A stretch of 64,000 nt of DNA from Dehalococcoidia bacterium. Its GTDB lineage: Bacteria > Chloroflexota > Dehalococcoidia > Bin125. A model generated the notes under the pieces. It made no database searches. It was given only the letters and a program-made list of their open reading frames with translations, and was not told the origin of the DNA. Location: NCBI GenBank assembly GCA_963663895.2, contig CAXXRD010000001.1:192001-256000 (forward strand), given 5' to 3'. Shown here piece after piece: positions 45,028 through 63,974 of the stretch; within the stretch, counting starts at the first letter, position 1, and every line of letters starts with the position of its first letter. A program made the translations under genes and the position numbers.

Positions 45028-46704
45028 CTACTCCGCGTCCCCGTCCTCCTCCTCCTCCGCCCCCTCGGGGACCGTCCAGACGACGGCGGCGCTGGTCGTG
45101 ACGGCCAGCAGGTCGCCGGGGGCGATGGGGAAGTCGACGCCGCGCGCGTCGGCCGGCGCGTAGCTCTGCCAGCCCTGCGATGCGTCGAAGCGCCAGATCG
45201 CCGTGACCTGATCCACGATCGCGGCCACCGCCGCCGAGGCCGCCAGCGCCGGTCCGGGCCAGGTGATCAGGTTCGACCCCTCCGCCAGCGAGATGCTGGC
45301 CGCCTGGCCGCGCTCGGGCAGGGGCGCGCTGGCCCGCACGTCCAGGTCGATGGCGGCCACGTAGGCCCGCACCCGCACCCCGTCCCTGGCGCCGTCCAGG
45401 GTGAAGACGGTGCGCGCCAGGCCGTCCATCGTCTCGGCCGTGACCGGATCGAAGGCGGGCATGGCGCTGGGGGTCGCCCCCACGGCGCTGAAGTGCACCG
45501 TGTAGCCGCTGGGGACGGCCGCGCCGCCGCTGTCGGTGACCAGCGCCGCCACGCCGTAGGCGCCGGCCGTCTCCCGCGGCGTCAGCACGAGCTGCAGCCG
45601 CGCCGCCGGCCCCACGATCCGGATGGCGGCGGTGGCCGAGAGCTCGCCCGCCTGGGCCGTGATCGTCACGGCGCCCGTTTCGGTCGCGTCCGCGGCCGAG
45701 ACGTGGGCCGCCGCGCGCCCGCTGGCGCCGGTGACCCCGGACTCGCCCTCGCCGCTGTGCACCACGGTCACGCCAGCCGCGTCGGTCTGGAAGCGCACGG
45801 GGACGCGCGGCACGGGCCGCCCGCCGGCGTCGAAGAGCGAGGCCACCAGCGTGCCCGGCGGCGCCGCGAAGGGCGTGTCGCCCAGGTTGACGCGCCGCGC
45901 CAGCGCCGTCAGCTCCAGCTGCGCCGGGGGACCGTGCAGGGTCAGCGCGAGGCTGGCCGTGGCGGCGCCGGCGGCGGCGCGCACGCGCACGGCGCCGGGA
46001 TCGGCGTGCAGATAGGCCGAGGCGCGCCCGCCGGCGTCGGTCGCGGCCGTGTAAGAGGCGGGCGCATCGTCCGCCGGGGCCGCGGCGCCGGCCGCCAGGC
46101 GGCCGCGGTCCGTCGTGAAGGCGACGGCGGCGCCGGGCACGGGCACGCCGGCGCGGTCGCGCACCTGCACGATCAGGCGCGGCGGCGCCGCCGCGCTCCG
46201 CACCGCGTCGGCGCTGGGGGTCTCGAAGGTGGTCGTGGCCGGCGCCCCGACGAAGGTGACCGTGGTCGAGCGGGCGCTGGCGCCGGCGCTGGCCGTCAGG
46301 GCCGCGGCGCCCAGCCGTCCGTCGCCCACCAGCGTGGCCGTGGCCACCGCCGTGCCGTCCCCCTGGTCGCGCAGCGAGACGCTGACGCGGCGGGGGCCGG
46401 CGGCGGCGCCGAAGGCGCCCCGCGTGGTCGTGAGCGTCACCTGGGTGACGGCCGCCGCCCCCGTGCCGGGGCTGACCGTGACCGTGATCGTCGATTGGCC
46501 GCCGGCGGCGGCGATCTTGGCGGGCGCCGCCTCCACGGCCCGCACCGTGGGCGGGGCCGCCTCGGCGGCGGCGGGCGCCAGCGCCAGGATCAGCCCGGCC
46601 GCCAGCGCCGCCAGCAGGATCAGGAGGAAGGGCCGCCCCCGTCCCGTGCGGGAAGGCGCCGGCCCGCCGCGCGCGGCGGCGTGCGTCGAGGGGCGCATGG
46701 GCAT
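45028..46704 (-). CDS. Secreted bacterial Ig-like (invasin/Big-type) repeat surface protein
   Basis: Signal peptide, repeated D..G.PV....V.F.T..G and TDA.G.A units, C-terminal L..G.NL..W.G...AIW.FD...W..Y.P domain. Confidence 0.8.
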   Translation of the reverse strand: MPMRPSTHAAARGGPAPSRTGRGRPFLLILLAALAAGLILALAPAAAEAAPPTVRAVEAAPAKIAAAGGQSTITVTVSPGTGAAAVTQVTLTTTRGAFGAAAGPRRVSVSLRDQGDGTAVATATLVGDGRLGAAALTASAGASARSTTVTFVGAPATTTFETPSADAVRSAAAPPRLIVQVRDRAGVPVPGAAVAFTTDRGRLAAGAAAPADDAPASYTAATDAGGRASAYLHADPGAVRVRAAAGAATASLALTLHGPPAQLELTALARRVNLGDTPFAAPPGTLVASLFDAGGRPVPRVPVRFQTDAAGVTVVHSGEGESGVTGASGRAAAHVSAADATETGAVTITAQAGELSATAAIRIVGPAARLQLVLTPRETAGAYGVAALVTDSGGAAVPSGYTVHFSAVGATPSAMPAFDPVTAETMDGLARTVFTLDGARDGVRVRAYVAAIDLDVRASAPLPERGQAASISLAEGSNLITWPGPALAASAAVAAIVDQVTAIWRFDASQGWQSYAPADARGVDFPIAPGDLLAVTTSAAVVWTVPEGAEEEEDGDAE

Positions 46705-46831
46705 GGCTGGGGCCTCCGTGCCTTCCTGCCGCTGGAGCAGTCTCCCGTCAGGGCGCCGGCGCCGTCCGCGGAGCGCGGGGTCCGGCGCGCTGGCGGGAGC
46801 CCTCTCCGGAGGGCCGGGAGAACGGCGGGGG

Positions 46832-46871
46832 AAAAGACGGAGCGGCCTCGCCTGGGCCAGGCCGCTCCGCC
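46832..46871 (-). terminator. Rho-independent terminator-like hairpin
   Basis: Minus strand GGCGGAGCGGCCT...AGGCCGCTCCGTC followed by TTTT. Confidence 0.75.
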
Positions 46872-46929
46872 CTTCCATCCCGTGACCGGGCGATCCCCGC
46901 GGGGACCGTCCGGTCTGCTTTACACGCGC

Positions 46930-47605: not shown

Positions 47606-49726
47606 CTAGCCGCCGACCGTCTGGTCGATCGGCGAACTCACGAAGAGGATGTCGCCGGTGGCGATGCTGAAGTTCCCGCTCCGGCCCGGGATGTAGACCA
47701 CGTCCCAAACGCCGGTGTCCTGGTTGTACTTCCAGGCGCTGGTGACGGCGTCGCCGAAGAGGGCGGCTGCCGTCGTCTGCGGACCACTCGCCGTGACCGC
47801 GACGATGCGGCCGCCGGCCCGGAGGTCCAGCGAGATGACCGGCTCGGGCTCCGGCTCGGGCTCCGGCATCACGATGGTCACCCCGCCGGCGCTGGAGTAG
47901 GTCCAAGCGCTGGCGAGCCCATCGGCGACGAAGCGCGCGCGGACGTTGTAGTTGCCCGGGTCGCTCGGGGCCATCTCCGGCCACGCCATCCAGGCGCCGC
48001 TGTTGTGCTGCACCTGGATCTCCAGGGTCGCGCCCTCAGGCGCGTCCGGGGAGACGGCGACCGTGAGTGCGCCGTCCACGACGCTCAGGCTCACGTTGCT
48101 CGGCGCGGCAGGCGGTTCCGGTGCCTCCGAATCACCGATCTGCACCACGATCTCGTGCGTGACCTCGCTGTCGCCCACGGGCACCGAGACCAGGAAGACG
48201 GCCGCGCCGGGGGTGAGCGGGGCGCGGTAGGTGAACGACCGCTGGCCGTCCGCCGTGTCGCCTTTGTCCTCGCCCGCCGTCACCTTGCCGGATCCCTCGA
48301 TCTGGTCGAGCGTGGCGTCGACGACGCCCACGGGCACGCCCCGGTCGTCCAGGACGGTGTAGGTGATCGTGATCGAGCTCAGCGGGTCCACCGAGGCGGG
48401 CGCGTCGCTCGTGATGCTCGCCGGCGGGCCGCCGACGTTGATCGTGAGCGTCACCAGGTCCTCGACATTATCGAGGCTTCCCGCCTTGACCGTGATCATG
48501 TGCGCGCCGCGGGTGGCGTCGTCGCTCGCGTCGTTGGGCGTAGTGTCGCCCGGCGCGCTGACCTTGATCACGCACTTGCCGTCGGCGTTGGTGCCGGCTG
48601 TGAACTTGTCGTAGTCACTCACCGAAGTATCCCGCGGGTTAACCCCAGCCGGCTGGTTGCCGCACGCCGGCAGATCCTTATCCGCGTCGTCCGGGTCGAG
48701 CTGGAAGAAGTCCTTGTCGTTGTCGACGAGGACCTTGACCTGGAGCACGCCCACGGGCGTCTTCGGCGACGTGATGCCGCCGTTCGTCGCCGCGCTGTTG
48801 ACGTCGACCTGCTCGCCCGCCACCGGGTTGCCGCCGCTGTCGAGGATGGTGGCGACGAGGAAGGTGTCGCCGCCGATCTCGATCGCGGAGTTCTGGGCCG
48901 CGACGGTCATGCTGGCCGCGGCGCCGTAGATCGGGACTTTGACGGTCCGGGTGAGTGTCGAATTATCGAGTGTGAACGTCACCTGGGCTGTGCCCGGGGT
49001 ACCGTCGCCGTGCACGCTCACCGTGGCCCGGCCCGCTTCATTGACGCCTGTGGTGCCGGCGTCATCAACAGCGGTGTCAATCTCGCAGGAGCTCTTGCCA
49101 GCGTCGGTGGTGCCACTCGACGACCCGCAGCCGCCCTGGCCGTCCGTGTGAATGTCGCCGAGCGACGTCCGGACTTCCAGTGTTTGGCCGCTGAAGCCCG
49201 TGCCGTCCGCCTTCACGAGCCGCACGGTGATGACGGCGCCGGCGCTGCCGTTTTGCGGGACCGTCTTGGGAACCGGGCCGTTATTCAAGACCTGGATCGT
49301 CGTCGCCGGGTTCGCCGCTATGACCTCGACTGGGTGCTCGCCTACGACCGCGTCCGCGCCGGCGGCCCGGCCGACGGATTGGACGTAGAAGGTGCCCAGG
49401 GGCGAGTCCGCCGCGATCTGGACCCGCAGCGCGACGCCGCTGCTGGTGCCGTTCTCGTCGCACGCCGTGTTATCTGCACACGTGATCTCCGTGCCGTTGT
49501 TGCGGGTGAACGTCGCCTTGATCTTGGTGGCGGGGTCGATCTGATATTTTAGAGCGCCCGAATGGTCGAGCGTCACGACGGTCTGCCCGCCGGCCTCGAC
49601 GGTCCCCGGGTTCGCCTGCGCCAGGGCCGTGCCGGACGAGACCATCGCCCCGGCGACCAGCGCCAGCACCAGCGCGAGCAGGACCGCGACCCGTGCGGGG
49701 CGGGCTGCTCTCATTGCTTCAATCAT
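47606..49726 (-). CDS. Secreted Ig-like repeat surface (S-layer-like) protein
   Basis: Signal peptide, beta-rich Thr/Val/Gly/Asp domains, PEPEPE linker, C-terminal SAWKYN..TG.W..Y.PG...FSI..GD.LFV domain. Confidence 0.8.
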   Translation of the reverse strand: MIEAMRAARPARVAVLLALVLALVAGAMVSSGTALAQANPGTVEAGGQTVVTLDHSGALKYQIDPATKIKATFTRNNGTEITCADNTACDENGTSSGVALRVQIAADSPLGTFYVQSVGRAAGADAVVGEHPVEVIAANPATTIQVLNNGPVPKTVPQNGSAGAVITVRLVKADGTGFSGQTLEVRTSLGDIHTDGQGGCGSSSGTTDAGKSSCEIDTAVDDAGTTGVNEAGRATVSVHGDGTPGTAQVTFTLDNSTLTRTVKVPIYGAAASMTVAAQNSAIEIGGDTFLVATILDSGGNPVAGEQVDVNSAATNGGITSPKTPVGVLQVKVLVDNDKDFFQLDPDDADKDLPACGNQPAGVNPRDTSVSDYDKFTAGTNADGKCVIKVSAPGDTTPNDASDDATRGAHMITVKAGSLDNVEDLVTLTINVGGPPASITSDAPASVDPLSSITITYTVLDDRGVPVGVVDATLDQIEGSGKVTAGEDKGDTADGQRSFTYRAPLTPGAAVFLVSVPVGDSEVTHEIVVQIGDSEAPEPPAAPSNVSLSVVDGALTVAVSPDAPEGATLEIQVQHNSGAWMAWPEMAPSDPGNYNVRARFVADGLASAWTYSSAGGVTIVMPEPEPEPEPVISLDLRAGGRIVAVTASGPQTTAAALFGDAVTSAWKYNQDTGVWDVVYIPGRSGNFSIATGDILFVSSPIDQTVGG

Positions 49727-50072
49727 TGCTGTTCCTTCCTATGCGGCCGGGCCGCGCATTTCCATATGCGGCCCCGCCGTCCTCTTCTGGGATCATTCCG
49801 GGTGAATGGTCGCTCGCCTACTCCCTTCTCCTTCTCACATCAAACGCCGGGCTCCCGCCCGGCTGCGCCAGGTGGAACTGCCCGCCAAGATACCGCCCCT
49901 GCCACGTATGCAGCAGCATTTTTACATCGCGTTGATAAAGGGGAACACCCAGCCGGGGCGGCCCGGCGCCGGCGATCGGTCCGCGCCCGGGCAGGGCCCG
50001 GCTGCTCCCGCGCCGGCAGCCCGGGGCCGCGCGCATTTTCGCACTCTCGACGCGAACGCCGCCGGCGTGCTG

Positions 50073-50390
50073 GCGCTGCATTGCCTGGACCTGGCTCGAG
50101 CGGGATGCTTGACGCGGGCGGCGGGCGGGCGGGAGACTGGCGGAGTGAGCCGGTCGGGTTGCTAGCCCGCAAGCGCTCCGGGGTTCGACACTGGCCTAGT
50201 GCCTTGCGGAGCGCGCCCGGCTCGCATCCATCCTATCCAAGTCCCTCGGGGATCCCTGCTCAAGCGGCGGGGATCGCTCCCAACCGCGTACGCTCTCTTT
50301 AACGATTGGCGCCCATCCCGCGCCGCCCTCCCCGGCCGCCGGCCGCCGCCAGCGCTGCAAACGGGAGCCCGCGCGGCCCGGCGACGCGGA
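50073..50390 (+). repeat. Structured non-coding repeat, copy 1 (complete 318 bp unit with promoter-like motif)
   Basis: TTGACG(50109)-18 nt-GAGACT, long hairpin 50145-50225, conserved core CATCCTATCCAAGT..CTCGGGGA.CCCTGCTCAAGCG.CGGGGA.CGCTCCCAACCGCGTACGCTCT. Confidence 0.85.
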
Positions 50391-50576
50391 GCGCTGCATT
50401 GCCTGGACCTGGCTCGAGCGGGATGCTTGACGCGGGCTGCGGGCGGGAGAGAGACTGAGCGCACGACCGGAGCGACGCCGCGTTGGCCTAGTGCGTAGGG
50501 ACGGCGCCGCATCCGGCCGTGCTCCCGCATCCTAATCCAAGTTCTCCCTCGGGGACCCCTGCTCAAGCGACGGGGA
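50391..50576 (+). repeat. Structured repeat, copy 2 (5' part, tandem to copy 1)
   Basis: First ~47 nt identical to 50073 onward; TTGACG(50427)-18-GAGACT; hairpin 50461-50522; similarity stops at ...CGACGGGGA 50576. Confidence 0.85.
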
Positions 50577-50728
50577 TTATAACCCTAACTTGACGTGACG
50601 CTTGGCATACTCTGGTCTCCCCCGCGCTGAGACCCGCAGTTCGATGCTGAGTGGAGCCATGCTCCCTTGTGGCTCGAACTGTGGAATGGTCTCAGCAATT
50701 ACTCCGCTCACGCGGCAAGGGAGCACCT

Positions 50729-50947
50729 ATGGCCGAGCCGACAGAACAGCAACCGTACCGGCGCGTGACCGTGCGCCAATCTGTCTTTGCGATCGCCGTC
50801 ATGGTGATCGTCGTGGTCGTGCTGATGGGAATCGCGTCGGCGGCCTTCGACTTGCGAAGCGATCTGAGTCTGGTCGTGGTCGCGACCACCTTCACGGCCG
50901 GCGGCGTGTGGGCCCACGTTCTGCTCTCCACCTACGCGCGGCGGTAA
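50729..50947 (+). CDS. Small two-TM membrane protein
   Basis: AAGGGAG RBS; two hydrophobic segments; preceded by a long hairpin at 50626-50696. Confidence 0.7.
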   Translation: MAEPTEQQPYRRVTVRQSVFAIAVMVIVVVVLMGIASAAFDLRSDLSLVVVATTFTAGGVWAHVLLSTYARR

Positions 50948-51014
50948 CCCTTGCGCGCCGGTGTAACATCCCCGGCACGTAACGCTATAATTGCTCCGCA
51001 AGGAGACCACCACG

Positions 51015-51282
51015 ATGACTACCACGCGCGAGACGCTGGAAGCGCACGATCTTGACCATTGAAGCTCTGGCGGCGGAGATGCGTGAGCAGTTCGAGTACG
51101 TCCGATCAGAGTTCGATATCGTCGGCCAACATCTCCGCCGTCTCAACACCAAGATCGACGACACGGAGCACCGGTTGACCGCCAAGATCGACGACACGGA
51201 GCACCGGTTGACCGCCAAGATCGATGATGCGCTGGCGACCATTCAGATGGAGATCAGCGCACTAAGTAGCCAGTTGGACTAA
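51015..51282 (+). pseudogene. Coiled-coil microprotein with 11-aa repeats, apparently frameshifted near 51050
   Basis: TATAAT box, AAGGAG RBS and ATG 51015 give only 15 codons. The body (KIDDTEHRLTA x2.5, 33-nt repeats) is in the +1 frame from 51052. Confidence 0.55.
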
Positions 51283-51354
51283 GTTCACCGGAGGCGACCG
51301 ATGTCCGATCCGGAGCAGCCAGCACCGAGCCCTAACAAAGTCCAAGGCGACGCT

Positions 51355-51524
51355 CGGCCGTGCTCCCTCATCCTCTCCAAGTTCTCCTGCGGGGACCCCT
51401 GCTCAAGCGACGGGGACCGCTCCCAAACCGCGTACGCTCTTTAACGATTGGCGCCCATCCCGCGCCGCCCTCCCCGGCCGCCGGCCGCCGCCAGCGCTGC
51501 AAACGGGCGCCCGCGCGGCCCGGC
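51355..51524 (+). repeat. Structured repeat, copy 3 (3' part)
   Basis: 51355-51416 duplicates 50514-50576; ~51368-51524 matches 50229-50382. Confidence 0.85.
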
Positions 51525-51825
51525 CGCACGACCTGCGCCGCCTGGATGGCAAAGCCCGCTTGACATCCCCCGGCGCCGCTGCGATCGTCCCGGCGCGGTG
51601 GCGCGGCTTCTCTCTCAATGCGGGCGCCGCCCGTCCCCTCGCCGGCTCCGGGCTGGGGCGTACGAGGGGGCCGATCCGCACGCTCCACTTGTGGGCGCGC
51701 CCCCCGCTTGACCGCTTGCGCGTTCCGCGGCGGGAGGGGGGCGCGTCGGGGCGTCCCCGCCGCCGCCACGCGGGCCGCGCAGGTGCTACGCTGCGAGCGG
51801 AGCCGCGACGGGAGGCACGGGAGCG

Positions 51826-52008
51826 ATGGCGGAGCCGCACGATTACGCGACGCAGGCCGATCTGGACGCGCTGCGCGCGGAGGTGGCGCGGATCGCGGCG
51901 GAGGTGCGGGCGGCGATCGCCGAGGCGCATGGGGATACGAAGGCGCAGATCGATGTCGCCATTCTGAGCCTGAGCGAGCTCATCGGGATGCCCGGCGACT
52001 CGGACTGA
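51826..52008 (+). CDS. Coiled-coil microprotein (YATxADL type)
   Basis: GGGAG RBS; MAEPHDYATQADLDALRAEVARIAAEVRAAI heptads. Confidence 0.65.
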   Translation: MAEPHDYATQADLDALRAEVARIAAEVRAAIAEAHGDTKAQIDVAILSLSELIGMPGDSD

Positions 52009-52095
52009 CCGGGCGGGCGGGGGATGCGGCTCCGGGACCGGGAGCTGGCGGCCTAGTAGTTCGGCGAGGGGCGCTGGAACGCGGTCAGCACATCA

Positions 52096-52374
52096 TCACT
52101 TGGCAGCCCGGATCTCCTCCTTGACCTGGGCGACCCCTTCATCCTTCGCTTCCTCGATCTGCACCTCCACCGCGCCAAGTTTCTCGGAGATCTCGATCCG
52201 CAATGCTCGGATGTCCCCGCGGAGCTCCTGGCGCAATGTCTCGATCGAGGCTTCCTGCTGCTCCACGACGGACAGCACGCGAAGAAGGTTGTTGGACAGC
52301 ACGTCAACGAAGGCCGTCTTGTAGGCCTCGATCGCACGATCAAGCTCTTCGCGTGTTACGTACTCTTGCGCCAT
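52096..52374 (-). CDS. Coiled-coil microprotein (YVTREEL type)
   Basis: MAQEYVTREELDRAI...LRQELRGDIRALRIEISEKL; GAGGG RBS and upstream TTGACA. Confidence 0.7.
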   Translation of the reverse strand: MAQEYVTREELDRAIEAYKTAFVDVLSNNLLRVLSVVEQQEASIETLRQELRGDIRALRIEISEKLGAVEVQIEEAKDEGVAQVKEEIRAAK

Positions 52375-52405
52375 CTGTGCCACCCTCGCTCTTAGGCATT
52401 GTCGC

Positions 52406-52430
52406 CTGTCAAGTATCGCTGTCAAGTATC
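52406..52430 (-). promoter_or_regulatory. Tandem 12 bp direct repeat containing TTGACA
   Basis: CTGTCAAGTATC at 52406-52417 and 52419-52430; minus strand gives TTGACA-16 nt-GACAAT. Confidence 0.6.
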
Positions 52431-52571
52431 TGGATACGCGGTGGCGGCCTCCCGGCGCGCCGTCGCTGGGGGATGCGTTTCCGCTACGCTGCGCGCACGA
52501 CCGAGGCGGCGATGCTGCCGCGCGCGACCCGCGTAAAGCGGCCGGAACGATCGTAGGGAGAAAGGAGAAAT

Positions 52572-52749
52572 AGAGCGTACGCGGTTGGGAACGGTCCCGC
52601 GGCGCTTCGTAGGGGTCCCCGAGGCAGAGCTTAGATAGAATGAGGGAGCACGGCCGGATGCGGCGGTCCCTCAGTTGGCCAACTAGCCGCCGCTCCGGTC
52701 GTGCTCTCAGTCTCCCGCCTGGGCCGTGCGCGCGTCAAGCCAGCGCTCG
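52572..52749 (-). repeat. Structured repeat, copy 4 (inverted, diverged)
   Basis: Minus strand: TTGACG-18-GAGACT, hairpin GAGCACGACCGGA...TCCGGCCGTGCTC, core CATTCTATCTAAG..CTCGGGGACCCCT...GGGACCGTTCCCAACCGCGTACGCTCT. Confidence 0.85.
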
Positions 52750-53189
52750 CGCTACGTCCTCCGGGGTCGCCCTCGGTAGCGCGGGTTCACGCTCTCCACG
52801 TCAGGAACCATCTCTTCCTGCATTAGTTGACGCTCTAGGCACGTTTGACAGACCCCCTAGCGTCTTGGACACTGCCGACAGCATCATCCCTGGCGTCCGG
52901 CGCACGTTGCACGTCAGGTTAGGATCCCTCTCTTTCTCGAAAGGACGGCGTTGCTGCCGTCTTTTCTTTGGGTGAGCGCTCTCTCTTCTTTCGCACGGTG
53001 ATTGCTTGGACGCTTCCGCCCAAGATGCAAGGCCGCCGCGACGATACACGCCTCAAGACAGGTAGAACCCGTAGATCGAGAGGTCGGTCCTTCTTTTCTT
53101 TTAACGCTGTTCGACTCTGAGATCGTCGAAGTACGGGGGAGCAAGGGAGATGACCCGGTCGGCTGTATCTCTGAGTTTCCGCGATGAGG

Positions 53190-53471
53190 CTAAGTCAACT
53201 CTCGCACGAGGACGGAAAGCTTTTCTTCGATCGCAGCGAGCCGCTCCTCGACGCCGCTGAGCCGCCCTTCGACGCCGCTGAGCCGCTCCTCGACGCCGCT
53301 GAGCCGCCCTTCGACGCCGCTGAGCCGCCCTTCGACGCCGCTAAGCCGCTCCTCAAAGCCGTCGAACTGCTTTTGGAGACTTTCGATTCGACCTTCCACG
53401 CGACGAATCTCGCCCATCACCGTCGCGAAGGATTCCGTGACTTGTTCTTCGAAGGTCGTCGTGGCGGACAT
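53190..53471 (-). CDS. Coiled-coil microprotein with 7-aa tandem repeats
   Basis: RLSGVE(G/E) x5 encoded by 21-nt tandem repeats (~53238-53352). Confidence 0.75.
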   Translation of the reverse strand: MSATTTFEEQVTESFATVMGEIRRVEGRIESLQKQFDGFEERLSGVEGRLSGVEGRLSGVEERLSGVEGRLSGVEERLAAIEEKLSVLVRELT

Positions 53472-55079: not shown

Positions 55080-58000
55080 TTAGACGCCGCCATGGGCGGA
55101 GGCTTCCTCTTCTTCCTGGCGCTTCCGGCGGCGGCGCCAGGCGATCAGGAACAGGAAGAGGGGGATCAGTCCCAGCAGGAGCCACGGCCACCAGGCCGTC
55201 GACCCGGACCCATCGCCCGCCCCGATCTGGGTCGCCGGGCCGCGAGTCGTCCGCTCGTCCGCCTCCGCCACCTCTATTGAGGGGACGGGGAACCGGTAGC
55301 TGTAGCCGTAGACGAGGGCGTTCGGGCCCGATTCCGGCGGCAGGTACCACTGCGGCGCGCTGGACACCTGTTTCGAGGGCTGCTGCGACTGCGTGGGCTG
55401 CGGCGACTGCTGCTGCGTGGGCGTGGGCTGGGTCGGTTGCGTGGGCTGCCGCGGCTGCTGTGGCTGCTGCGTGGGCGTGGGCTGGGTCGGCTGCTGCTGC
55501 GTGGGCGTGGGCTGGGTCGGTTGCGTGGGCTGCCGCGGCTGCTGTGGCTGCTGCGTGGGCGTGGGCTGGGTCGGCTGCTGCGGCTGCTGCTGCGTGGGCG
55601 TGGGCCGGGTCGGTTGCGTGGGCGGCGCGCCGGCAGTCGTCAGCCCGGTCTTGGCCGTCGCCGTCGCGGACCAGGGGCCGGCGCCTTCGTCGTTCGCCGC
55701 CCGAACCTGGACCTCGTAGCTGGTGTCCGCCGTGAGGCCCGTGATCGTCGTGCTGGTCCCCGTGCCGGTGAAGGCGTGGCCGGTCCAGGCGGACTCCCCG
55801 CTCTTACGGTACCGCACGTCGTAGTCCGTGATGGGCGGCTTGCCGGTCATGTCCGGGGCCGTCCAGCTTACGTCCAGGGCGCCCGTCGGGTCGGCGCTGT
55901 TGGCGCGCACCTTGGGCGCGGCCGGGGCCGCCGGCGGCTCGTTCACGTCGGTGACGCGGATGGTCACGGCGATGGTGTCGTCGATCGCCGGATCGGCGGT
56001 CCCGTCGGCGGCCTTCCCGTCGCTGACGCTCACGGTGACGCTGTAGGATCGCTTGCTCTCGTAGTCGAGCGCCGCCTTCACCTGGAGCCGGCCCGTGCCC
56101 GCGTCCAGGGCGAAGCTGGCGGCGTCGGTCCCGGCGAGGCTGTAGGCGAGCGCGTCGCCCTCCGGGTCGGTCGCGGTCAACGCCGCGCCGATGGCCGCGC
56201 CGGCGGCCGAGTTCTCCGCGATGGAGCGGGCGGCCGTGTCGGCGGGAAACTCCGCGGGGAGGTTCTCGTCCTGCGTGCTGGCGCTGCCGCTGTCCGACCA
56301 AGGGCTGGCGCCCTCGATGTTCTTCGCCTGGATCTGCACGTCGTAGGTGGTGTCCGCCGCGAGGCCCGTGATCGTCGTGCTGGTCCCCGCGCCGGTGAAG
56401 GCGTGGTCGGTCCAGGTGGAATCCCCGCTCTCGCGGTACCGCACGTCGTAGTCGTTGAGGGGCTGCTTGCCCGTCATGTCCGGGGCCGTCCAGCTCACGT
56501 CCAGGGCGCTCGCCGGGGCGGCGCTGTTGCGGACCACTTTGGGCGCGTCCGGGGCGTCCGGCGGCTCGTGCACGTTGGTGACGCTGATGTCCACCGGGAT
56601 GGTGTAGACCCCCGGGCCGTTGGGGACGAGGCGCTCGGCCTGCGGCGCGTTGGGGTTGGGGCTCTGGATCTGGCCTCCCGCGGCCGCCGTCATCGTGACG
56701 GTCACGCGGTAGGATCGCTTGCTCTCGTAGTCGAGCGTCACGCCCTTCCTGACCGTGATCTGGCCGCTGCCGCCGTCAATGGCGAACTGCGCCGCGTCCG
56801 TCCCGCTCATGCTGTGGGTGAGGGCGTAGCCGTTGGGGTTGGCCGTGGCCGTGACGGCCGCGCCCACGTTGGCCCCGGCGGGGGAGTTCTCCGCCACGTT
56901 CCGCGCCATCGTGCTCGCCCTGGTGATGCCGTTGCCCGAGTTCGACCAGACGCTTTCTCCCTCGTCGTTCTTGCCCTGGATCTGCACGTCGTAGCTGGTG
57001 CCCGCCGCGAGGCCCGTGATCGTCGTGCTGGTCCCCGTGCCGGTGAAGGGGTGGTCGGTCCAGGTGGAATCCCCGCTCTTGCGGTACTGCACGTCGTAGT
57101 CCGTGATGGGCGGCTTGCCGGTCATGTCCGGGGCCGTCCAGGACACGTTCAGCGTACTCGTCGGGTCGGCGCTGTTGGCGCTGTTGGCGCCGAGGGCGGC
57201 GGCGTGGAGATAGCTGCCGCGGGCGCTGGCGACGGAGAGTTGGCCGGCGGAGCCGGAGTTGCCGACGAGGTTGGTCACCGTGGGCGCGGCCGGCTTGTCC
57301 GGCGGCTCGTCCACGTCGGTGACGGTGATGGTCACGGCGACGGCGCCGTCGATCGCCGGGTCGGCGGTCCCGTCGGCGGCCTTCCCGTCGCTGACGTTGA
57401 CGGTGACGCTGTAGGAGGTCGTGCCGGATTCGTAGTCGAGCGCCGTGCCGGCCGCGACCGTGATCTGGCCCGTGGCGGCGCCGATGTCGAACTTGGAGGC
57501 GTCCGCGCCCGTGAGGGTGTAGGTGAGCGCGTCGCCCTCCGGGTCGGTCGCCGTCACCGCCGCGCCCACGTTCGTTCCCGCCGCCGAGTTCTCAGCGACG
57601 CTGCGGGCCAGGGAGGTGTCGCCCGGGTCCAGCTTGGGCAGCTGGGGGACCTCGTTCACGTCGGTGACGGTGATGGTGACGGGGATCGTGTAGCTCCCCG
57701 GCGCGTTGGGGATGAGGCTGAAGCTCTGCGCCTGGACCCCCGCCGCGGCCGCCGTCGCCGTGACGATCACGCTGTAGGATTTCTTGGTCTCGTAGTCGAG
57801 GGCCGTGCCCGCCTTGACCGTGATCTGGCCGCTGCCGCCGTCGATGACGAACTTGGCCGCGTCCGTCCCGCTCATGCTGTGGGTCAGGTCGTAGCCGTTG
57901 GGGTTGGCCGTGGCCGTGACGGGCGCGCCCACGTTGGTCCCGGCCGCCGAGTTCTCGGCGACGCTGCGCGTGACGGCGTCGGCGTCGGTGATGGCCGTGC

Positions 58001-61000
58001 CGGAGCCGGACCAGGCGCCGTCGCCCTCGGCGTTCACCGCCCGCACCTGGACCTCGTAGCTCTTGCCGGTCGTGAGGCCGCTGAGCGTCGTGGAGGTTCC
58101 CGTGCCGCTGAACGAGGCGTCCGTCCAGGCGGAATCGCCCGAGAGCCGGTACTGCACGTCATAGTCGCTGATGGCCGGCTTGCCGGCCATGTCCGGGGCC
58201 GTCCAGGACACGTCCAGCTTCGTGCTCGGCGTGGTGGCGTTGGCGACCACCGTGGGCGCGGCCGGGGCCGGCGGCGGCTCGTCCACGTCGGTGACGGTGA
58301 TGGTGACGGCGATGGTGTCGTCGATCTTCGTGTCGGGGTTGTCGTCGGTGTCCTTCCGGTCGCTGACCTCGACGGTGAGGGTGTAGGAGCTTTTGGCCTC
58401 GTAATCGGGGATGTTGCCGGCCTTGACCGTGATCTGGCCGGTGTTGAGGCCGATGTTGAAGCTGTCCTTGTCGGTTCCGTTCAGCGAGTAGTAGAGGGTG
58501 TGGCCCTCAGTGTCGGTGGCGGTGACCGCCGCGCCGACGTTGGCGCCCGCCGCCGCGTTCTCGGCGATGCTGCGCGTGGCCGTCTGGTCCGGGAACTCGG
58601 CGTGGACGTTCTTGTCCTGGGTGTTGGCGCTGCCGCTGGCCGACCAGGCGCCGTCGCCCTCGTCGTTGACGGCGCGCACCTGCACGTCGTAGCTGGTGCC
58701 TTCGTCGAGGCCGGTGAGGGTCGTGGAGGTGCCCGTGCCGGTGAACCCGTGCGCCGTCCACGTCGAGTCGCTGCTCTTCTTGTACTGCACGTCGTAGTCG
58801 TTGACGGCGGGCTTGCCAGCCATCTGCGTGGTCGTCAGCGCCGTCCAGGACACGTCGAGCTTGGTCTTGGGCGTCGCCGTGTTCTGCGTCACCGTCGGCC
58901 CGTCGGGGGCGGGCGGCGGCTCGTTCACGTCGGTGACGGTGATGGTGACGGGGATCACGTAGTCGCCCGGCGCGTTGGGGGCGAGGCTGAAGCTCTGCAC
59001 CTGGGCCACCGCCGCGGTCACCGTCACGGTGACGCTGTAGGAGGTCGTGCCGGATTCGTAGTCGAGGCTGGTCCCGCTGGCGACCGTGATCTGGCCCGTG
59101 CTGGCGCCGATGGCGAACTTGGAGGCGTCCGTGCCGCTGAGGGCGTGCGTGAGGGCGTAGCCGTTGGGGTTGGACGTGGCCGTCACCGCCGCGCCCACGT
59201 TGGCGTTCGCCGCCGAGTTCTCGGCCACGCTGCGGGTGACGCCGCCCGCCTTCGTGATGGCGCTGCCCGAGCCCGACCAGGCGCCGTCGCCCTCGTCGTT
59301 GACGGCGCGCACCTGGACCTCGTAGCTCTTGCCCTTGGTCAGGCCCGTCAGCGTCGTGCTGGTGGTCGTTCCGGTGAAGGAGGCGTCCGTCCACGTCGAG
59401 CCGCCCGAGAGGCGGTACTGCACGTCGTAGTCCGTGATGGCCGGCTTGCCCGTCATCGCCGGGGCCGTCCAGCTCACGTCCAGCTTCGTGCTCGGCGTCG
59501 TGCTGTTGGCGCTCACCGTGGGCGCGGAGGGCGCGGCCGGCGGCTCGCTCACGTCGGTGACGTTGATGGTCACGGCGATGGTGTCGTCGATGGCCGTGTC
59601 GGCGGTGCCGTCGGCCTTCTTCTTGTCGGTGACGTTGACCGTGACGCTGTAGGAGGTCTTGGCCTCGTAATCGGGGATGTTGCCCGACTTGACCGTGATC
59701 TGCCCTGTCGTCGAGCCGATCTCGAACTTGCTGGCGTCCGTTCCCGTGAGGCTGTAGGTGAGCGTGTCGCCCTCGGGGTCGGCGCCGGCGGCGACCGCCG
59801 CGCCGATGTTCGTCCCCGCGGACGAGTTCTCGGCGATGGAGCGGGTGGCGGTGTCGTCGGAGAACAGCGGCGGCTCGTTCACGTCGGTGACGGTGATGGT
59901 GACGGGGATCACGTAGTCGCCCGGCGCGTTGGGGGCGAGGCTGAAGCTCTGCACCTGGGCCACCGCCGCGGTCACCGTCACGGTGACGCTGTAGGAGGTC
60001 GTGCCGGATTCGTAGTCGAGCGCCGTGCCTGCCTTGACCGTGATCTGGCCCGTGCTGGCGCCGATGGCGAACTTGGAGGCGTCCGTGCCGCTGAGGGCGT
60101 GCGTGAGGGCGTAGCCGTTGGGGTTGGCCGTGGCCGTCACCGCCGCGCCCACGTTGGCGTTCGCCGCCGAGTTCTCGGCCACGCTGCGGGTGACGCCGCC
60201 CGCCTTCGTGATGGCGCTGCCCGAGCCCGACCAGGCGCCGTCGCCCTCGTCGTTGACCGCGCGCACCTGGACCTCGTAGCTCTTGCCCTTGGTGAGGCCC
60301 GTCAGCGTCGTGCTGGTGGTCGTTCCGGTGAAGCTGTGGCTGCTCCAGGTGGAGGTTCCGGTCTGCCGGTACTGCACGTCGTAGTCCGTGATGGCCGGCT
60401 TGCCCGTCATCGCCGGGGCCGTCCAGCTCACGTCCAGCTTCGTGCTCGGCGTCGTGCTGTTGGCGCTCACCGTGGGCGCGGCCGGCGCGGCCGGCGGCTC
60501 GTTCACGTCCGTCACGCTGATGGTGACGGGGACCTTGTAGTCCCCCGGCGCATTGGGATCCACCGACTGCGCGTTCGCGCCCTGCGTCTTCGCCGCCGCC
60601 GTTACGGTCACCGTCACGCTGTAGCTTGTCTTGCTCTCGTAGTCGGGGATGTTGCCCGTCTTCACCGTGATCTGCCCGGTGGACGAGCCGATCTCGAACT
60701 TGCTCGCGTCCGTCCCGCTCAGCGCGTGCGTGTAGGTGTAGGTGGTATTGGTGGACTTTGCCGTCACCGCCGCGCCGATATTGGTTCCCGCCGCCGAGTT
60801 CTCGGCGATGCTGCGCGTGACCGCGTTGGCGTCGGTGATCGCCGTGCCGGAGTCGGACCAGTCGCCGTTGCCCTCGGCGTTGACGGCCCGCACCTGCACC
60901 TCGTAGCTCTTGCCCTTGGTCAGGCCCGTCAGCGTCGTGGAGGTTCCCGTTCCGGTGAAGCTGTGCGAGGTCCAGGCGGAATCGCCGGTCTTGCGGTACT

Positions 61001-63974
61001 GCACGTCGTAGTCGCTGATGGCGGGCTTGCCCGTCATGATCGGGGCCGTCCACGACACGTCCAGCTTGGTCGTCGGCGTGGTGGAGTTGGCGGCCACCGT
61101 CGGCGCGGCCGGCGCGGCCGGCGGCTCGCTCACGTCCGTCACGATGACGAGGACGCTGTAGGTGACGTCGAGGATGTTCCGCTGCAGGTTGTTCTCGACG
61201 GCGCGCAGCGTGAGGCTGTAGCTCGACTTGCTCTCGAAGTCCGGGACGTTGCCCGTCTTGACCTGGATCTGGGCGGACTGGGCCGTCTTGTAGCCCGTGT
61301 CCGTGCTGAGCTTGAACGTGGAGCCGTCCGTCCCGCCCAGGCTGAACTGCAGCGGATAGTAGTCCGTGGCGTTGACGTTGAACTTGCCGCCCACGTTGCC
61401 GTTGACCGCCGTGTTCTCCGCCAGGTAGAGGATGACGGACGACCCGGACCAGTGGCCGTCGCCCTCGTCGTTGATGGAAGCCCGCACCTGCACCTCGTAC
61501 TCCTTGCCCGCGGTCAGGCCGGTGATGGTAGTGCTGGTGGCGGTGCTGTTGGTGGTGTCCGGCATCTCCGTCCAGGAGCTGGTGGTCCACTCCCGGTACC
61601 GCACGTCGTAGTCGTTCAGCGTGGTGCCCGTCATCGGGGTCGGGGCGGTCCAGGACACGTCCAGGGCCGTGGTCGGGTTGGTGGAGTTCTGGGCCAGCGT
61701 CGGCCGGTCCACGTTCGGGGCCCGGACATCGTTCACGTTGATCTGGATGTTGCCGCCCACCGTCGTGTTTTCGACGCTGTAGCGGAAAGTCCCGCTGTAC
61801 GAGGTCTTGGTCTCGTAGTCGAGCGTCGTCCCGTCCTTGACCGTGACCTGGCCGGTGCTGGAGTCGATGTCGAAGTAGGTGGCGGCGTCGCCGTTGAGGG
61901 AGAAGCTGCTGCCATCGGCCCTGTTTGGCCCGCCCACGCTGCCGACCACGGTGTCCTTGGGCTTGTTCTCCTGGACGCTCAACGTTTCCTTGCAGTTGAA
62001 ATGCTTCACATACAGGGCGATCGCGTCGTACAGCCCGTCGGGGTCCGTCGCCGTGTAGTGGAATGAGTACCAGTCCAGGGGCGGATGCCTGAGCGTCGCC
62101 ACGGCGTAGCCGGAGGAATTGATGGTGGTGCTGACGAGCTTGTTCGAACCCGCGGTGAAGGTCAGCGTGTCGTCTTCCGGGTCGTAGAAGTGCTTGGTGT
62201 GGCCGCTGCTGGGGGCATAGGTGACGGAGCCGCTGTAGCAGTGGCCGTATTTCGACCAGAGTTGCCCGATAAGCTGGGACCCGCTGCTCTTGATGCTGGC
62301 GTAGGGCGCGTGGTTTCCGGACGTGTCGGACACCCTGATGCGGATGTTTACGGCCGGGGTGCTCTTGTTGGAGGCGTAGGCGTCGTAGTTGGCTACCCTG
62401 GTGGAGAACCACTTGGTGGGCGTACCGCTCAGGGTGCGGGTGGAGGCGTTCCAGGAAATCCCGGGGGGCAGCTGCGCCCCCTTGTTGCCGCCGCCTTCCG
62501 ACAGCTTGTAAGTGATGTGGGGATCGCCGGTGGCCGCGGGCAGCGTCACGTTCACGGCAACGCCCTGCGTCCACTCCAGCAGGGTGGGCGGCGCGGTGAC
62601 CCAGGAGAGGCCGGACTGGGCGGACGCGCCCTCCGCCGTCAGCACCTCGATGCTGAAGGACAGCGTGGCGGTGTCCGTGCCGTCGCTGGCGCTGTAGCGG
62701 TAGGTGGCGCTGACGGCCTCAGCCGTGGGCGTGCCCGTGATGGTGCGCGCCGCCGCGTCGAAGGTCAGGCCCGCGGGCAGGTCCGGGGAGAGGGCGTAGG
62801 TGAGGCTCCCGGCGCCGCCGGCGGCGGCGGGCAGGGTCAGCGTGTCGATGGCGGTGTCCTTCACCCAGGACTGGTCGGCGACGGTCGCGCCGCCGAAGGA
62901 GAGGCCGGGCGCCGCGACGGCGACGGTGAACGTGAGGCTGGCCGCGTCGTATCCGTCGGCGGCGGCGCTGTAGGTGTAGGTCGCGCTCGCCGCCTCCGCC
63001 GTCGGCGTCCCGCTGATGGTCCGGGCCGCCGCGTCGAAGCTCGCTCCGGCAGGGAGGCTCGGGGAGAGCGTGTAGGTGATCTCAGGGACGACGGTCGCGC
63101 AGATGGCGCCGTTGCAGCTGACAGTGGCCAGGGGCAGGCGCAGCGTGTCGATGGCCGCGTCCTTCGTCCACGACTGGCTCGGGACCGTGTGGCTCCCGAA
63201 GGTGAGGGAGCGGCCCGGCGCGGGCGATGCGAACGGCGCCGCTGCCGGCGAGTTGGTCCAGCCGCTGTCGCCGCCGCCGTTGCGGGCGCGCACGCCCACG
63301 AAGTACGTCTTGCTGTTGTCCACGCTGAAGGTGATGCTGGCGGACGCGTGGTTCAGGGCCGCCAGGCTCCAACTCTGCTTGTCGTCCGAGCTGTAGGTGA
63401 CGTGGTAGCTCGTCGCCCCCGATACGGCGGACCAGCTTGCCGTCAGGGAGCCGTCGGCCCGCGTCACGGAGACGGATCCGACGGGGCCGGGCGGCGGCGT
63501 GGCATTGGGCGGCGTGAACGGCCCCGCGGCCGGGGAGTTGCGCCAGCCGCTGTCGCCGCCGCCGTTGCGGGCGCGCACGCCCACGAGGTAGGTCGCGCTG
63601 TTGGAGACGCTGATGGTGATGCTGGTCCCGCCGTGGTTCAGGGCGGCCAGGCTCCAGCTGCCGCCGCCGTCCGAGCTGTAGGTGACGTGGTAGCTGGTCG
63701 CGCCGTCCACGGCGGCCCACGATGCCGTCAGCGTCCCATCGGCGCGGGTCACGCTGACGGAGGACGGCGTGGCGGGCGGGGTCTCCTCCGACGCCGCTTG
63801 GGCGGGCTGAGCGATCGTGGGGATCAGGAGGGCGGCGGTGAGCGCCAGGAGGGCGAGAGAGCGAAGCCGGCGATGGGAACGCCGCGCGGCCCGCCGGCGC
63901 CGCGGGGGGGTTGATTGTCGTCTAGCAGTGAGGAATCTCAGCTCAGCACCCCTGTCTCCACCGAACCAAGCCAT
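55080..63974 (-). CDS. Giant surface adhesin with fibronectin III, putative Ig and cadherin-like repeats and a C-terminal TM anchor
   Basis: Signal peptide; repeated L.VSWTAP...Y.VQY...TGL..G.SYEVQVRA.N..G.G.WS (FN3); RSIAEN...DYE.K.SY...VTDVNE (cadherin); LP.G.FD...RTI.GTP (Ig); PTQ-rich stalk; WWPWLLL..RRRRKR. Confidence 0.95.
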   Translation of the reverse strand: MAWFGGDRGAELRFLTARRQSTPPRRRRAARRSHRRLRSLALLALTAALLIPTIAQPAQAASEETPPATPSSVSVTRADGTLTASWAAVDGATSYHVTYSSDGGGSWSLAALNHGGTSITISVSNSATYLVGVRARNGGGDSGWRNSPAAGPFTPPNATPPPGPVGSVSVTRADGSLTASWSAVSGATSYHVTYSSDDKQSWSLAALNHASASITFSVDNSKTYFVGVRARNGGGDSGWTNSPAAAPFASPAPGRSLTFGSHTVPSQSWTKDAAIDTLRLPLATVSCNGAICATVVPEITYTLSPSLPAGASFDAAARTISGTPTAEAASATYTYSAAADGYDAASLTFTVAVAAPGLSFGGATVADQSWVKDTAIDTLTLPAAAGGAGSLTYALSPDLPAGLTFDAAARTITGTPTAEAVSATYRYSASDGTDTATLSFSIEVLTAEGASAQSGLSWVTAPPTLLEWTQGVAVNVTLPAATGDPHITYKLSEGGGNKGAQLPPGISWNASTRTLSGTPTKWFSTRVANYDAYASNKSTPAVNIRIRVSDTSGNHAPYASIKSSGSQLIGQLWSKYGHCYSGSVTYAPSSGHTKHFYDPEDDTLTFTAGSNKLVSTTINSSGYAVATLRHPPLDWYSFHYTATDPDGLYDAIALYVKHFNCKETLSVQENKPKDTVVGSVGGPNRADGSSFSLNGDAATYFDIDSSTGQVTVKDGTTLDYETKTSYSGTFRYSVENTTVGGNIQINVNDVRAPNVDRPTLAQNSTNPTTALDVSWTAPTPMTGTTLNDYDVRYREWTTSSWTEMPDTTNSTATSTTITGLTAGKEYEVQVRASINDEGDGHWSGSSVILYLAENTAVNGNVGGKFNVNATDYYPLQFSLGGTDGSTFKLSTDTGYKTAQSAQIQVKTGNVPDFESKSSYSLTLRAVENNLQRNILDVTYSVLVIVTDVSEPPAAPAAPTVAANSTTPTTKLDVSWTAPIMTGKPAISDYDVQYRKTGDSAWTSHSFTGTGTSTTLTGLTKGKSYEVQVRAVNAEGNGDWSDSGTAITDANAVTRSIAENSAAGTNIGAAVTAKSTNTTYTYTHALSGTDASKFEIGSSTGQITVKTGNIPDYESKTSYSVTVTVTAAAKTQGANAQSVDPNAPGDYKVPVTISVTDVNEPPAAPAAPTVSANSTTPSTKLDVSWTAPAMTGKPAITDYDVQYRQTGTSTWSSHSFTGTTTSTTLTGLTKGKSYEVQVRAVNDEGDGAWSGSGSAITKAGGVTRSVAENSAANANVGAAVTATANPNGYALTHALSGTDASKFAIGASTGQITVKAGTALDYESGTTSYSVTVTVTAAVAQVQSFSLAPNAPGDYVIPVTITVTDVNEPPLFSDDTATRSIAENSSAGTNIGAAVAAGADPEGDTLTYSLTGTDASKFEIGSTTGQITVKSGNIPDYEAKTSYSVTVNVTDKKKADGTADTAIDDTIAVTINVTDVSEPPAAPSAPTVSANSTTPSTKLDVSWTAPAMTGKPAITDYDVQYRLSGGSTWTDASFTGTTTSTTLTGLTKGKSYEVQVRAVNDEGDGAWSGSGSAITKAGGVTRSVAENSAANANVGAAVTATSNPNGYALTHALSGTDASKFAIGASTGQITVASGTSLDYESGTTSYSVTVTVTAAVAQVQSFSLAPNAPGDYVIPVTITVTDVNEPPPAPDGPTVTQNTATPKTKLDVSWTALTTTQMAGKPAVNDYDVQYKKSSDSTWTAHGFTGTGTSTTLTGLDEGTSYDVQVRAVNDEGDGAWSASGSANTQDKNVHAEFPDQTATRSIAENAAAGANVGAAVTATDTEGHTLYYSLNGTDKDSFNIGLNTGQITVKAGNIPDYEAKSSYTLTVEVSDRKDTDDNPDTKIDDTIAVTITVTDVDEPPPAPAAPTVVANATTPSTKLDVSWTAPDMAGKPAISDYDVQYRLSGDSAWTDASFSGTGTSTTLSGLTTGKSYEVQVRAVNAEGDGAWSGSGTAITDADAVTRSVAENSAAGTNVGAPVTATANPNGYDLTHSMSGTDAAKFVIDGGSGQITVKAGTALDYETKKSYSVIVTATAAAAGVQAQSFSLIPNAPGSYTIPVTITVTDVNEVPQLPKLDPGDTSLARSVAENSAAGTNVGAAVTATDPEGDALTYTLTGADASKFDIGAATGQITVAAGTALDYESGTTSYSVTVNVSDGKAADGTADPAIDGAVAVTITVTDVDEPPDKPAAPTVTNLVGNSGSAGQLSVASARGSYLHAAALGANSANSADPTSTLNVSWTAPDMTGKPPITDYDVQYRKSGDSTWTDHPFTGTGTSTTITGLAAGTSYDVQIQGKNDEGESVWSNSGNGITRASTMARNVAENSPAGANVGAAVTATANPNGYALTHSMSGTDAAQFAIDGGSGQITVRKGVTLDYESKRSYRVTVTMTAAAGGQIQSPNPNAPQAERLVPNGPGVYTIPVDISVTNVHEPPDAPDAPKVVRNSAAPASALDVSWTAPDMTGKQPLNDYDVRYRESGDSTWTDHAFTGAGTSTTITGLAADTTYDVQIQAKNIEGASPWSDSGSASTQDENLPAEFPADTAARSIAENSAAGAAIGAALTATDPEGDALAYSLAGTDAASFALDAGTGRLQVKAALDYESKRSYSVTVSVSDGKAADGTADPAIDDTIAVTIRVTDVNEPPAAPAAPKVRANSADPTGALDVSWTAPDMTGKPPITDYDVRYRKSGESAWTGHAFTGTGTSTTITGLTADTSYEVQVRAANDEGAGPWSATATAKTGLTTAGAPPTQPTRPTPTQQQPQQPTQPTPTQQPQQPRQPTQPTQPTPTQQQPTQPTPTQQPQQPRQPTQPTQPTPTQQQSPQPTQSQQPSKQVSSAPQWYLPPESGPNALVYGYSYRFPVPSIEVAEADERTTRGPATQIGAGDGSGSTAWWPWLLLGLIPLFLFLIAWRRRRKRQEEEEASAHGGV
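55390..55620 (-). repeat. Pro/Thr/Gln-rich tandem repeats (84 nt period)
   Basis: The same GTGGGCGTGGGCTGGGTCGGTTGC block starts at 55417 and 55501. Confidence 0.85.
58921..60480 (-). repeat. Near-identical ~600 bp intragenic duplication (FN3+cadherin module), offset 954 nt
   Basis: 58921-~59526 aligns to 59875-~60480 with a few block substitutions. Confidence 0.88.

Follow-up and report, generated by a model that had tools for sequence, protein, structure and literature searches.

Within a stretch of 64,000 nucleotides (nt) from a Dehalococcoidia bacterium (assembly GCA_963663895.2, contig CAXXRD010000001.1, positions 192,001 to 256,000 of the forward strand; referred to here as the window, with coordinates counted from its first letter), four related copies of a short repeated element, named c1 to c4, were found between positions 50073 and 52738, and a further copy, c5, was found on contig 2 of the same genome (2.37 Mb in 5 contigs, 66.5% G+C). 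These copies are probably the genes, and decayed pieces of genes, of a lineage-restricted family of structured non-coding RNAs, a reading to which we give a probability of about 0.55. An earlier inspection of the letters alone (the sequence-only reading) had proposed an undescribed non-coding RNA or a small mobile unit at this place. The present analysis upholds a structure-constrained element without a match in Rfam, its transcription being presumed from the promoter-like sequences, and retains the idea of mobility in a weak form only.

The word TTGACG followed after 18 nt by GAGACT, on which the sequence-only reading was built, occurs in exact form three times in the window, at 50109-50138(+), 50427-50456(+) and 52738-52709(-), against 0.00 occurrences expected from 100 shuffles. 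In the loosened form TTGAC[GA]-N18-GA[GC]AC[TC] it has seven sites across the 2.37-Mb genome, four of which are those of c1, c2, c4 and c5. Copy c1 is complete (50073-50300, +, from repeats and alignment) and begins with an upstream block at 50073-50139, with TTGACG at 50109-50114 and GAGACT at 50133-50138, which is repeated in c2 at 50391-50457 (direct repeat D3, 67 nt, 96% identical). The structured domain that follows (50145-50225, +) is predicted to form a three-way junction by folding, by RNAalifold and by the covariance model R1 described below, with which it scores 92.9 bits. The closing stem P1 pairs 50145-50153 with 50217-50225 (GTGAGCCGG/CCGGCTCGC), P2 is a small hairpin pairing 50155-50158 with 50166-50169 (CGGG-TTGCTAG-CCCG, loop TTGCTAG), and P3 pairs 50173-50180 with 50207-50214 (GCGCTCCG/CGGAGCGC) below the apex GGGTTCGACACTGGCCTAGTG. 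The 3' core of c1 (50226-50300, +; alignment A1, repeats D2, I3 and I4, and fold) consists of a C/U-rich CATCCATCCTATCCAAGTCCCTC, a hairpin GGGGATCCCTGC...GGGGATC and an end, CCGCGTACGCTCTCTTT, which is probably terminator-like.

Copy c4 (52562-52738, -) is likewise complete, with its promoter-like box at 52738-52709, a hairpin at 52706-52646 (arms GAGCACGACCGGA/TCCGGCCGTGCTC and GCGGCGG/CCGCCGC), the core and a U-rich end at about 52572-52562. In c2 (50391-50578, +) the upstream block is followed by a hairpin at about 50459-50524 (arms GCACGACCGGA/TCCGGCCGTGC) and by the start of the core, and similarity stops at 50578. Both c2 and c4 keep P1 and P3 and are without P2, which leaves a single long hairpin. 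The hairpin arms quoted by the sequence-only reading for c1, c2 and c4 are all in the sequence and fold as described, and the apex TGGCC(T/A)A and the downstream core blocks were recovered by alignment; its single hairpin after each box holds for c2 and c4 and has to give way in c1 to the three-way junction with the additional P2 hairpin. A 3' half made of a C/U-rich stretch, a G4/C4 hairpin, CCGCGTACGCTCT and a short U-rich run is common to c1, c3 and c4 and is partly present in c2.

Of the four copies that had been described as promoter-bearing, three do carry the promoter-like box and hairpin, and the fourth, c3 (51355-51440, +), is a 3' fragment with the core and the terminator-like end, without promoter and without 5' domain. 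It is followed by an 88-nt tail at 51437-51524, which is 99% identical to that found after c1 at 50295-50382(+) (direct repeat D1). Since a 62-nt stretch of c2 (50514-50576) recurs in c3 (51355-51416), c2 and c3 look like one copy split by about 780 bp (50579-51354, +; repeats D2 and D10). A possible degenerate 5' fragment of a further copy, held with low confidence, lies tail to tail with c4 at 52483-52545(+) (D9, 83% to 50455-50477; I10). The window thus holds two complete copies (c1 and c4), one truncated copy (c2) and one 3' fragment (c3), with c1 and c2 inside a tandem duplication, and the best explanation for this layout is local duplication and recombination.

The hunt for further copies was productive both in the same genome and in its relatives. 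Copy c5 (contig 2, 602033-602190, -) forms a three-way junction and is 77% identical to c1, bringing the genome to five copies or fragments and a possible sixth. Model R1 was built from c1, c5 and the copy of genome G002, and it matched in 4 of the 65 genomes of the order: two matches in the genome of the window, two in G001 and one each in G002 and G023. G001 and G002 are both of the other genomes of the window's genus, and G023 belongs to another genus. With an unfitted MAFFT alignment of the five three-way-junction copies of the genus, RNAalifold yields P1, P2 and P3. In alignment A6 (eight sequences, fitted to R1), 94.6% of cells pair against 35.9-48.4% when the pairing is slid, 7 of the 19 pairs change on both sides, and none of 500 shuffles reaches the observed values. 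Compensatory changes were seen within the genome, in both other members of the genus and in the sister genus described below, which agrees with the earlier view that structure is kept over sequence.

The promoter-like box is also kept in all copies of the genus (c1, c2, c4, c5, G001 and G002). It reads TTGACG-N18-GAGACC in c5, TTGACA-N18-GACACT in the G002 copy and TTGAC(G/A)-N16-TAGCGT in both G001 copies. The conserved promoter geometry that had been noted from c1, c2 and c4 extends to every complete copy examined, the box standing at a fixed distance before the first helix. Within the genus the copies lie at unrelated loci, with duplicated ends of neighbouring genes alongside, and the G002 copy faces a convergent gene. 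At one of these loci (L114, 1287-2630, G001 contig 9) there are three occurrences of the 3'-terminal 110-180 nt of a phosphonate-binding-protein gene (in register, at 89% and 62% identity). The first and second of these gene ends enclose one RNA copy; the second and third enclose a glyoxalase-type gene, a 36-aa coiled-coil open reading frame (ORF) and an inverted RNA copy.

Genome G023 was found to carry tandem arrays of units, and a model built from six of them (R3) gave 14-19 matches per genome in six of the seven genomes of genus g9, the sister genus, and two in G006 (genus g5). There were no R3 matches in the window's genus, whose 3' module differs, and none in the remaining genomes scanned apart from weak ones in six genomes of genus g6 (E 0.003-0.035), which were uninspected and are not counted. 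The sister-genus unit is predicted to be a four-way-junction RNA of about 100 nt. After a -10 box and 3-8 nt comes P1, of 10-12 bp, on GGAGCC/GGCCCC and usually with an A.C mismatch; P2 is GGGG-loop-CCCC, P3 is highly variable, and P4 is short with GNRA-like loops (AUAA, GAAA, GCAA, GUGA). Directly after P1 stands a 3' hairpin GCGCCCCCGA...UCGGGGGCGC, also written GCGCCCCCG...CGGGGGCGC, and then CUUCGCGUCCG. As this hairpin occurs 15-17 times per genome, about as frequently as the units, it belongs to the unit and is no general terminator. In alignment A9 (53 units from 36 loci, fitted to its model), 90.0% of cells pair against 47.1-65.7% slid, with 15 of 26 pairs changing on both sides and again none of 500 shuffles reaching the observed values. 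An extended -10 box, TGnTAnnnT, was found in 52 of these 53 units against 9 of 1639 background windows, and it stands at a fixed distance from P1.

The tandem arrays hold 2-5 units with a period of 147-186 nt, each unit with its own promoter-like box and no ORF between units. Different species of genus g9 carry them at shared positions. At one and the same position the species differ in the number and the type of units, and turnover is therefore fast. Judged by sequence comparison, the window copies appear to belong with this sister-genus family, on the grounds of a near-identical 20-22-nt 5' word, GGAGCCGG(N)GGGTTGCTAGCCC, of the same helix order, and of the R1 scores of the G023 units (33 and 21 bits).

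Outside these genomes the family was not recovered. Model R2, used with stricter filters on 151 genomes sampled across the class (six of them other members of the same taxonomic family), matched in the genome of the window only, its sensitivity for the sister-genus type being poor. The four top-scoring true copies reach 62-93 bits with R1. Against this benchmark, the pattern GAGCCGGN{0,3}GGGKTGYNAGCCC in species-representative genomes gave 89 stretches, of which the 80 listed include none above 26.6 bits and are put down to chance. The same pattern gave three stretches in viral contigs, and the stricter GGAGCCGG... form gave 39 in Joint Genome Institute (JGI) metagenomes; the best of these reached 24.7 bits and none was accepted.

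The copies also did not correspond to any known RNA family. None of the 4227 models of Rfam 15 matched in the window at the gathering threshold, and cmscan of 49900-52900 at E<=10 returned only four weak microRNA or small nucleolar RNA matches, so that the comparison with Rfam which the sequence-only reading had named as a possible refutation left its proposal standing. With Rfam at E<=1 on 18 sister-genus loci there was no match on the units, the tRNA model matching only two true tRNA genes, which lie directly upstream of a tandem unit pair on the same strand in G023 (L231, 978-1179, contig 3). No description of such an RNA was found in those parts of the literature that were consulted. Within that scope the RNA family is best filed for now as new, without an Rfam or literature counterpart, the nearest kind being the multicopy small RNAs. 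The earlier statement that no ORF is conserved across the copies agrees with a comparison of reading frames, and the idea of a small peptide (type I toxin) was rejected as no hydrophobic or conserved frame was present in 13 copies.

Several observations weigh against the copies being genes of a structured RNA and are brought together here. Folding z-scores of the 5' domains range from -0.43 to -5.24 (the latter, about -5.2, in c4), not all of them better than shuffles, and full-length copies fold no better than shuffles (c1 -0.47, c4 -1.22); the case for structure therefore rests on comparison and not on energy. In that comparison the alignments A6 and A9 are fitted to models, which favours pairing, and the shuffle tests overstate significance because the sequences come from few, related genomes. 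GAGACT agrees with TATAAT at 3 of 6 positions, a weak -10 box, and for this reason a consensus promoter scan omits these sites. The public runs that hold the locus are three DNA runs from one study, with no RNA run among them. In the 3' hairpin of the sister genus, six of the nine pairs of the main stem are invariant and there is almost no U-tract, which looks like a constraint on sequence rather than a plain terminator. Compared with the genome by blastn-short, c1, c2, c4 and c5 had no matches away from the copies other than ones of 14-21 nt with E>=0.018, and no candidate antisense target rose above chance. Half of the window copies are truncated. Lastly, a same-strand ORF begins 11-206 nt past the last unit at 27 of the 36 sister-genus loci (none at 7, farther away at 2; crude ORF caller), and at L215 the ATG follows the unit after just 12 nt and a GGAG, an interval into which no -10 box fits.

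The last two of these observations, on the same-strand ORFs and on L215, would suit a cis-acting role, in which promoter, structured RNA and 3' hairpin together form a portable 5' leader or attenuator for the next gene; as variants of this, the hairpin could be a regulated terminator or the 5' junction a stabiliser of the mRNA. A G001 copy runs straight into the 36-aa coiled-coil ORF, c4 and c2 both point at small ORFs, and at L215 a second promoter could not be accommodated. As the 36 loci represent about 16 orthologous sets, the raw count exaggerates the orientation bias. The same-strand genes downstream of the g9 arrays are unrelated to one another (a nitroreductase-like gene of 152 aa, uvrD, and sortase, ClpS-like, FabF-like and glyoxalase-type genes), and with the exception of L215 most downstream genes carry their own TGnTAnnnT box 6-20 nt before the ATG, which marks the units as separate transcription units and speaks against a leader or riboswitch. 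The ORF after c4 similarly has its own TTGACA-16-GACAAT at 52425-52398. Further points against a leader are that each unit of the arrays has a promoter of its own, that the G002 copy faces a convergent gene, and that a 65%-identical paralogue of a 60-aa ORF of the window stands elsewhere (contig 1, 760845-761024) without the element upstream. On balance a leader function, the strongest of the alternatives, is considered rather unlikely.

With regard to the genes behind the arrays, for example at L201 (1647-1675), L212, L200 and L183 (1653-1695), the distance from TGnTAnnnT to the ATG was as little as 6-7 nt (uvrD) or about 20 nt. This suggests that the mRNAs of such genes are leaderless or have very short leaders, and that promoters in this group are of the extended -10 type without a -35 box.

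A second alternative is a repeat acting at the level of DNA, in which a recombinase or transposase would act on the hairpins as cruciforms or as folded single-stranded DNA, similar to attC sites, repetitive extragenic palindromes (REP) or miniature inverted-repeat transposable elements (MITE), and the boxes would be incidental or outward-reading. For a MITE or REP-type repeat one would expect inverted repeats of conserved sequence at the ends, short target duplications and a cognate transposase; in the copies the hairpin arms vary with compensation. It draws on the patchy distribution given above for R1 and R3, on the scatter of copies over unrelated loci within one genus, on the partial copies (c3 and the possible fragment at 52483-52545) and on the duplicated gene ends beside copies, namely those of the phosphonate-binding-protein gene (three, in G001) and, beside units in G023, 115 nt duplicated from the start region of uvrD. 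The same features give some substance to the earlier suggestion of a small mobile unit, which is set back by the lack of a transposase or integrase nearby. One 313-nt contig from run X3 joins 50294 to 51437 and omits the 1142 nt between the 88-nt repeats. This joint may represent a true recombinant, or a strain without the second unit, or it may be an assembly collapse across the 88-nt repeat, its depth being 4.19; other joints in the contigs of the DNA runs had short sides of 20-31 nt and were disregarded.

A DNA-level repeat is nevertheless distinctly unlikely. Seven tyrosine-recombinase matches were found in the genome, the nearest on this contig at 72 kb, about 170 kb from the locus at 242-245 kb. 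Among the ORFs around the copies that were scanned with Pfam and PHROGs, none matched a transposase, integrase or phage family, no genome-wide transposase search having been made. On reading the copies, neither a short target-site duplication of fixed length nor a GTTRRRY-type core was seen. P2 breaks the palindrome, which makes the structure strand-specific. The units hold the same positions across sister-genus species, which favours stable genes, and the -10 box is kept in 52 of the 53 units at its fixed distance from P1. Integron attC sites in particular share with the units a conserved hairpin base with a fixed mismatch, a variable and maybe branched distal part, a length of 60-140 nt and an arrangement in arrays. 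They differ in that the copies are without the RYYYAAC/GTTRRRY core, all of them having the stem bases GGAGCCGG / CCGGC(C/U)CC by reading; in that there is no integron integrase nearby, no cassette ORF between units and a mixed orientation in the window; and in the conserved promoter before each unit.

Resemblances to tRNA were detected in some units and raise the question of relics of tRNA genes or of integrative elements that target them. The apex of c2 is identical over 14 nt to the D-loop of the tRNA-Ser(GCT) of this genome, a score reached by 1 of 100 shuffles, and unit G023a holds 14 nt of the variable/T arm of tRNA-Gly(CCC), reached by none of 100. The word GGTTCG is present in 6 of 53 units against 31 of 1639 background windows and [CT]TAG[AC]GGCC in 5 of 53 against 0 of 1639, and c3 resembles the partial 3' duplicate left by an integration. 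Against this, neither ARAGORN nor the Rfam tRNA model finds a tRNA at the units (ARAGORN reports no tRNA gene in the window or in L008, L009, L011 and L022), in 11 of 13 copies the best match to a tRNA does not exceed that of shuffles, the T-like word stands before the D-like word, which is the reverse of the order in tRNA, and no integrase is nearby. Such an origin is very improbable, and the tRNA-like words are a feature of a sub-family and no evidence of tRNA ancestry. Bacterial Y RNA (YrlA) is similar in its length of about 100 nt, in a long closing stem formed from both ends and in a T-loop-like element in some copies. It is set apart by the absence of a Ro/Rsr gene (TROVE, PF05731; 0 matches in this genome, G000, which is 91% complete, with control genomes responding), by the absence of an Rfam match and by the far higher copy number of the present element.

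The sequence-only reading had also pointed to the phage antisense-immunity RNAs of the P1 c4 and P4 CI kind, the known members of which are processed as tRNA-like substrates. The likeness lies in a loose layout of promoter, leader hairpin and C-rich tracts, that is, a small structured RNA with its own promoter, some units of which carry T-loop- or D-loop-like words. This comparison fell away, and an RNA of this kind has next to no probability here. The C4 family of Rfam does not match even at E<=10, a distant blastn search of 50060-51540 against 50,697 phage records gave no match, PHROGs gave weak coiled-coil matches only on the neighbouring ORFs, and no complementary target boxes or phage genes accompany the copies, the neighbours encoding surface proteins and small coiled-coil proteins.

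The copies lie between genes for surface-type proteins, among them one of 616 aa with Big_1 domains (45028-46878, -) and one of 706 aa (47606-49726, -). A giant protein of 2964 aa with about ten fibronectin-III and nine cadherin-type repeats is encoded at 55080-63974(-), with a third-position G+C of 0.96. The G002 copy also adjoins a giant surface protein (a 3060-aa frame), which has a C-terminal domain of about 80 aa in common with the 706-aa protein. A cluster of small ORFs extends over 50729-53471. Between c2 and c3 lie a 72-aa membrane ORF (50729-50947, +; ORFs and Pfam) and a coiled-coil gene (51015-51282, +) that appears to be frameshifted, a 15-codon ORF at 51015-51062 (MTTTRETLEAHDLDH) overlapping a 76-aa frame at 51052-51282 with three 33-nt tandem repeats at 51138-51236. 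The 60-aa coiled-coil ORF lies at 51826-52008, and a 92-aa coiled-coil ORF (52096-52374, -) is the one downstream of c4. A 93-aa coiled-coil ORF (53190-53471, -) has 21-nt repeats encoding GVEGRLS-type heptads and a sub-threshold match to DUF7310.

Small coiled-coil or membrane ORFs with an 'ATRxDL' motif were also found near copies in G001, G002 and G023, and a 92-aa 'ATKEDL' coiled-coil ORF lies near c5 (L182). About 2.5 kb from c5, at L182 10548-11496 (contig 2), translation suggests a pair of a putative VapC-like protein (139 aa) and an AbrB/SpoVT-like protein (82 aa). A tie between the element and the small coiled-coil ORFs was considered and rejected in view of the 60-aa paralogue that has no element upstream.

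Of the systems already described, the sibling multicopy small RNAs of bacteria, such as Listeria LhrC1-5, Vibrio Qrr1-5 and the alphaproteobacterial 'cuckoo'/CcsR tandem RNAs, come closest. The present copies resemble them as paralogous copies, often in tandem, each with its own promoter-like box and terminator-like hairpin and with presumed transcripts of about 100-160 nt, so that the presence of several copies, each with promoter and terminator, by which such siblings are recognised, was found here too. A scaffold is conserved in both while other parts vary, and the window copies have C/U-rich single-stranded stretches. They differ in forming a closed three- or four-way junction instead of a row of hairpins and show no sequence or Rfam relationship to these RNAs. 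The element may also be set beside the candidate structured-RNA motifs obtained by comparative genomics (Weinberg et al., 2010; PMC2864571), which it resembles as a lineage-restricted, intergenic motif defined by covariation and without an assigned function; the units here differ from them in having a clear promoter and a unit-specific 3' hairpin and in being multicopy in tandem.

If the copies are indeed genes of a structured RNA, each complete gene would possess a separate promoter, the end of which lies about 7 nt ahead of the first helix. P1 would close the RNA as a stem of 9-12 bp on GGAGCC.../...GGC(C/U)CC, usually with an A.C mismatch, P2 would be a small G/C hairpin and P3 a long arm that varies strongly between copies, with the short GNRA-like-capped P4 in the sister genus and a terminator-like 3' module next. 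Each unit would be transcribed separately as a junction RNA of 100-160 nt. It is suspected that these act as sibling small RNAs that share one partner, bound by the scaffold (P1, P2, P4 and the 3' hairpin), and that differ in specificity through P3; this mechanism is held with much less confidence than the existence of the RNA genes themselves. Loop-loop pairing of P2 with the apex of P3 and anti-terminator pairings of the G5 with the C5 tracts were looked for by eye and gave nothing consistent. A more far-reaching and very doubtful version is that of a new class of tRNA-sized junction RNAs serving as interchangeable adaptors, a programmable RNA-protein system in which a protein reads the scaffold and P3 picks a nucleic-acid or protein target. 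The protein would then recognise the A.C-mismatched GGAGCC stem, P4 with its GNRA cap and the 3' hairpin of conserved sequence, and the T-loop- and D-loop-like words in some arms could mimic the tRNA elbow.

Even as DNA-level repeats or portable leaders, the units would clearly exemplify repeats that bring a promoter ahead of unrelated genes. If they are expressed, they would constitute a new structured RNA family with more than 100 natural variants in 10 genomes, 53 of them aligned, and with good covariation, a defined promoter and a unit-specific 3' hairpin, which would suffice for probing the structure and for seeking the partner protein. The source group is the uncultured Chloroflexota, in which RNA regulation is almost wholly undescribed. 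Bacterial small RNAs do not usually unite a conserved scaffold with one hypervariable arm, with tandem amplification and with fast turnover at fixed chromosomal positions, and finding all of these together hints at a diversifying use.

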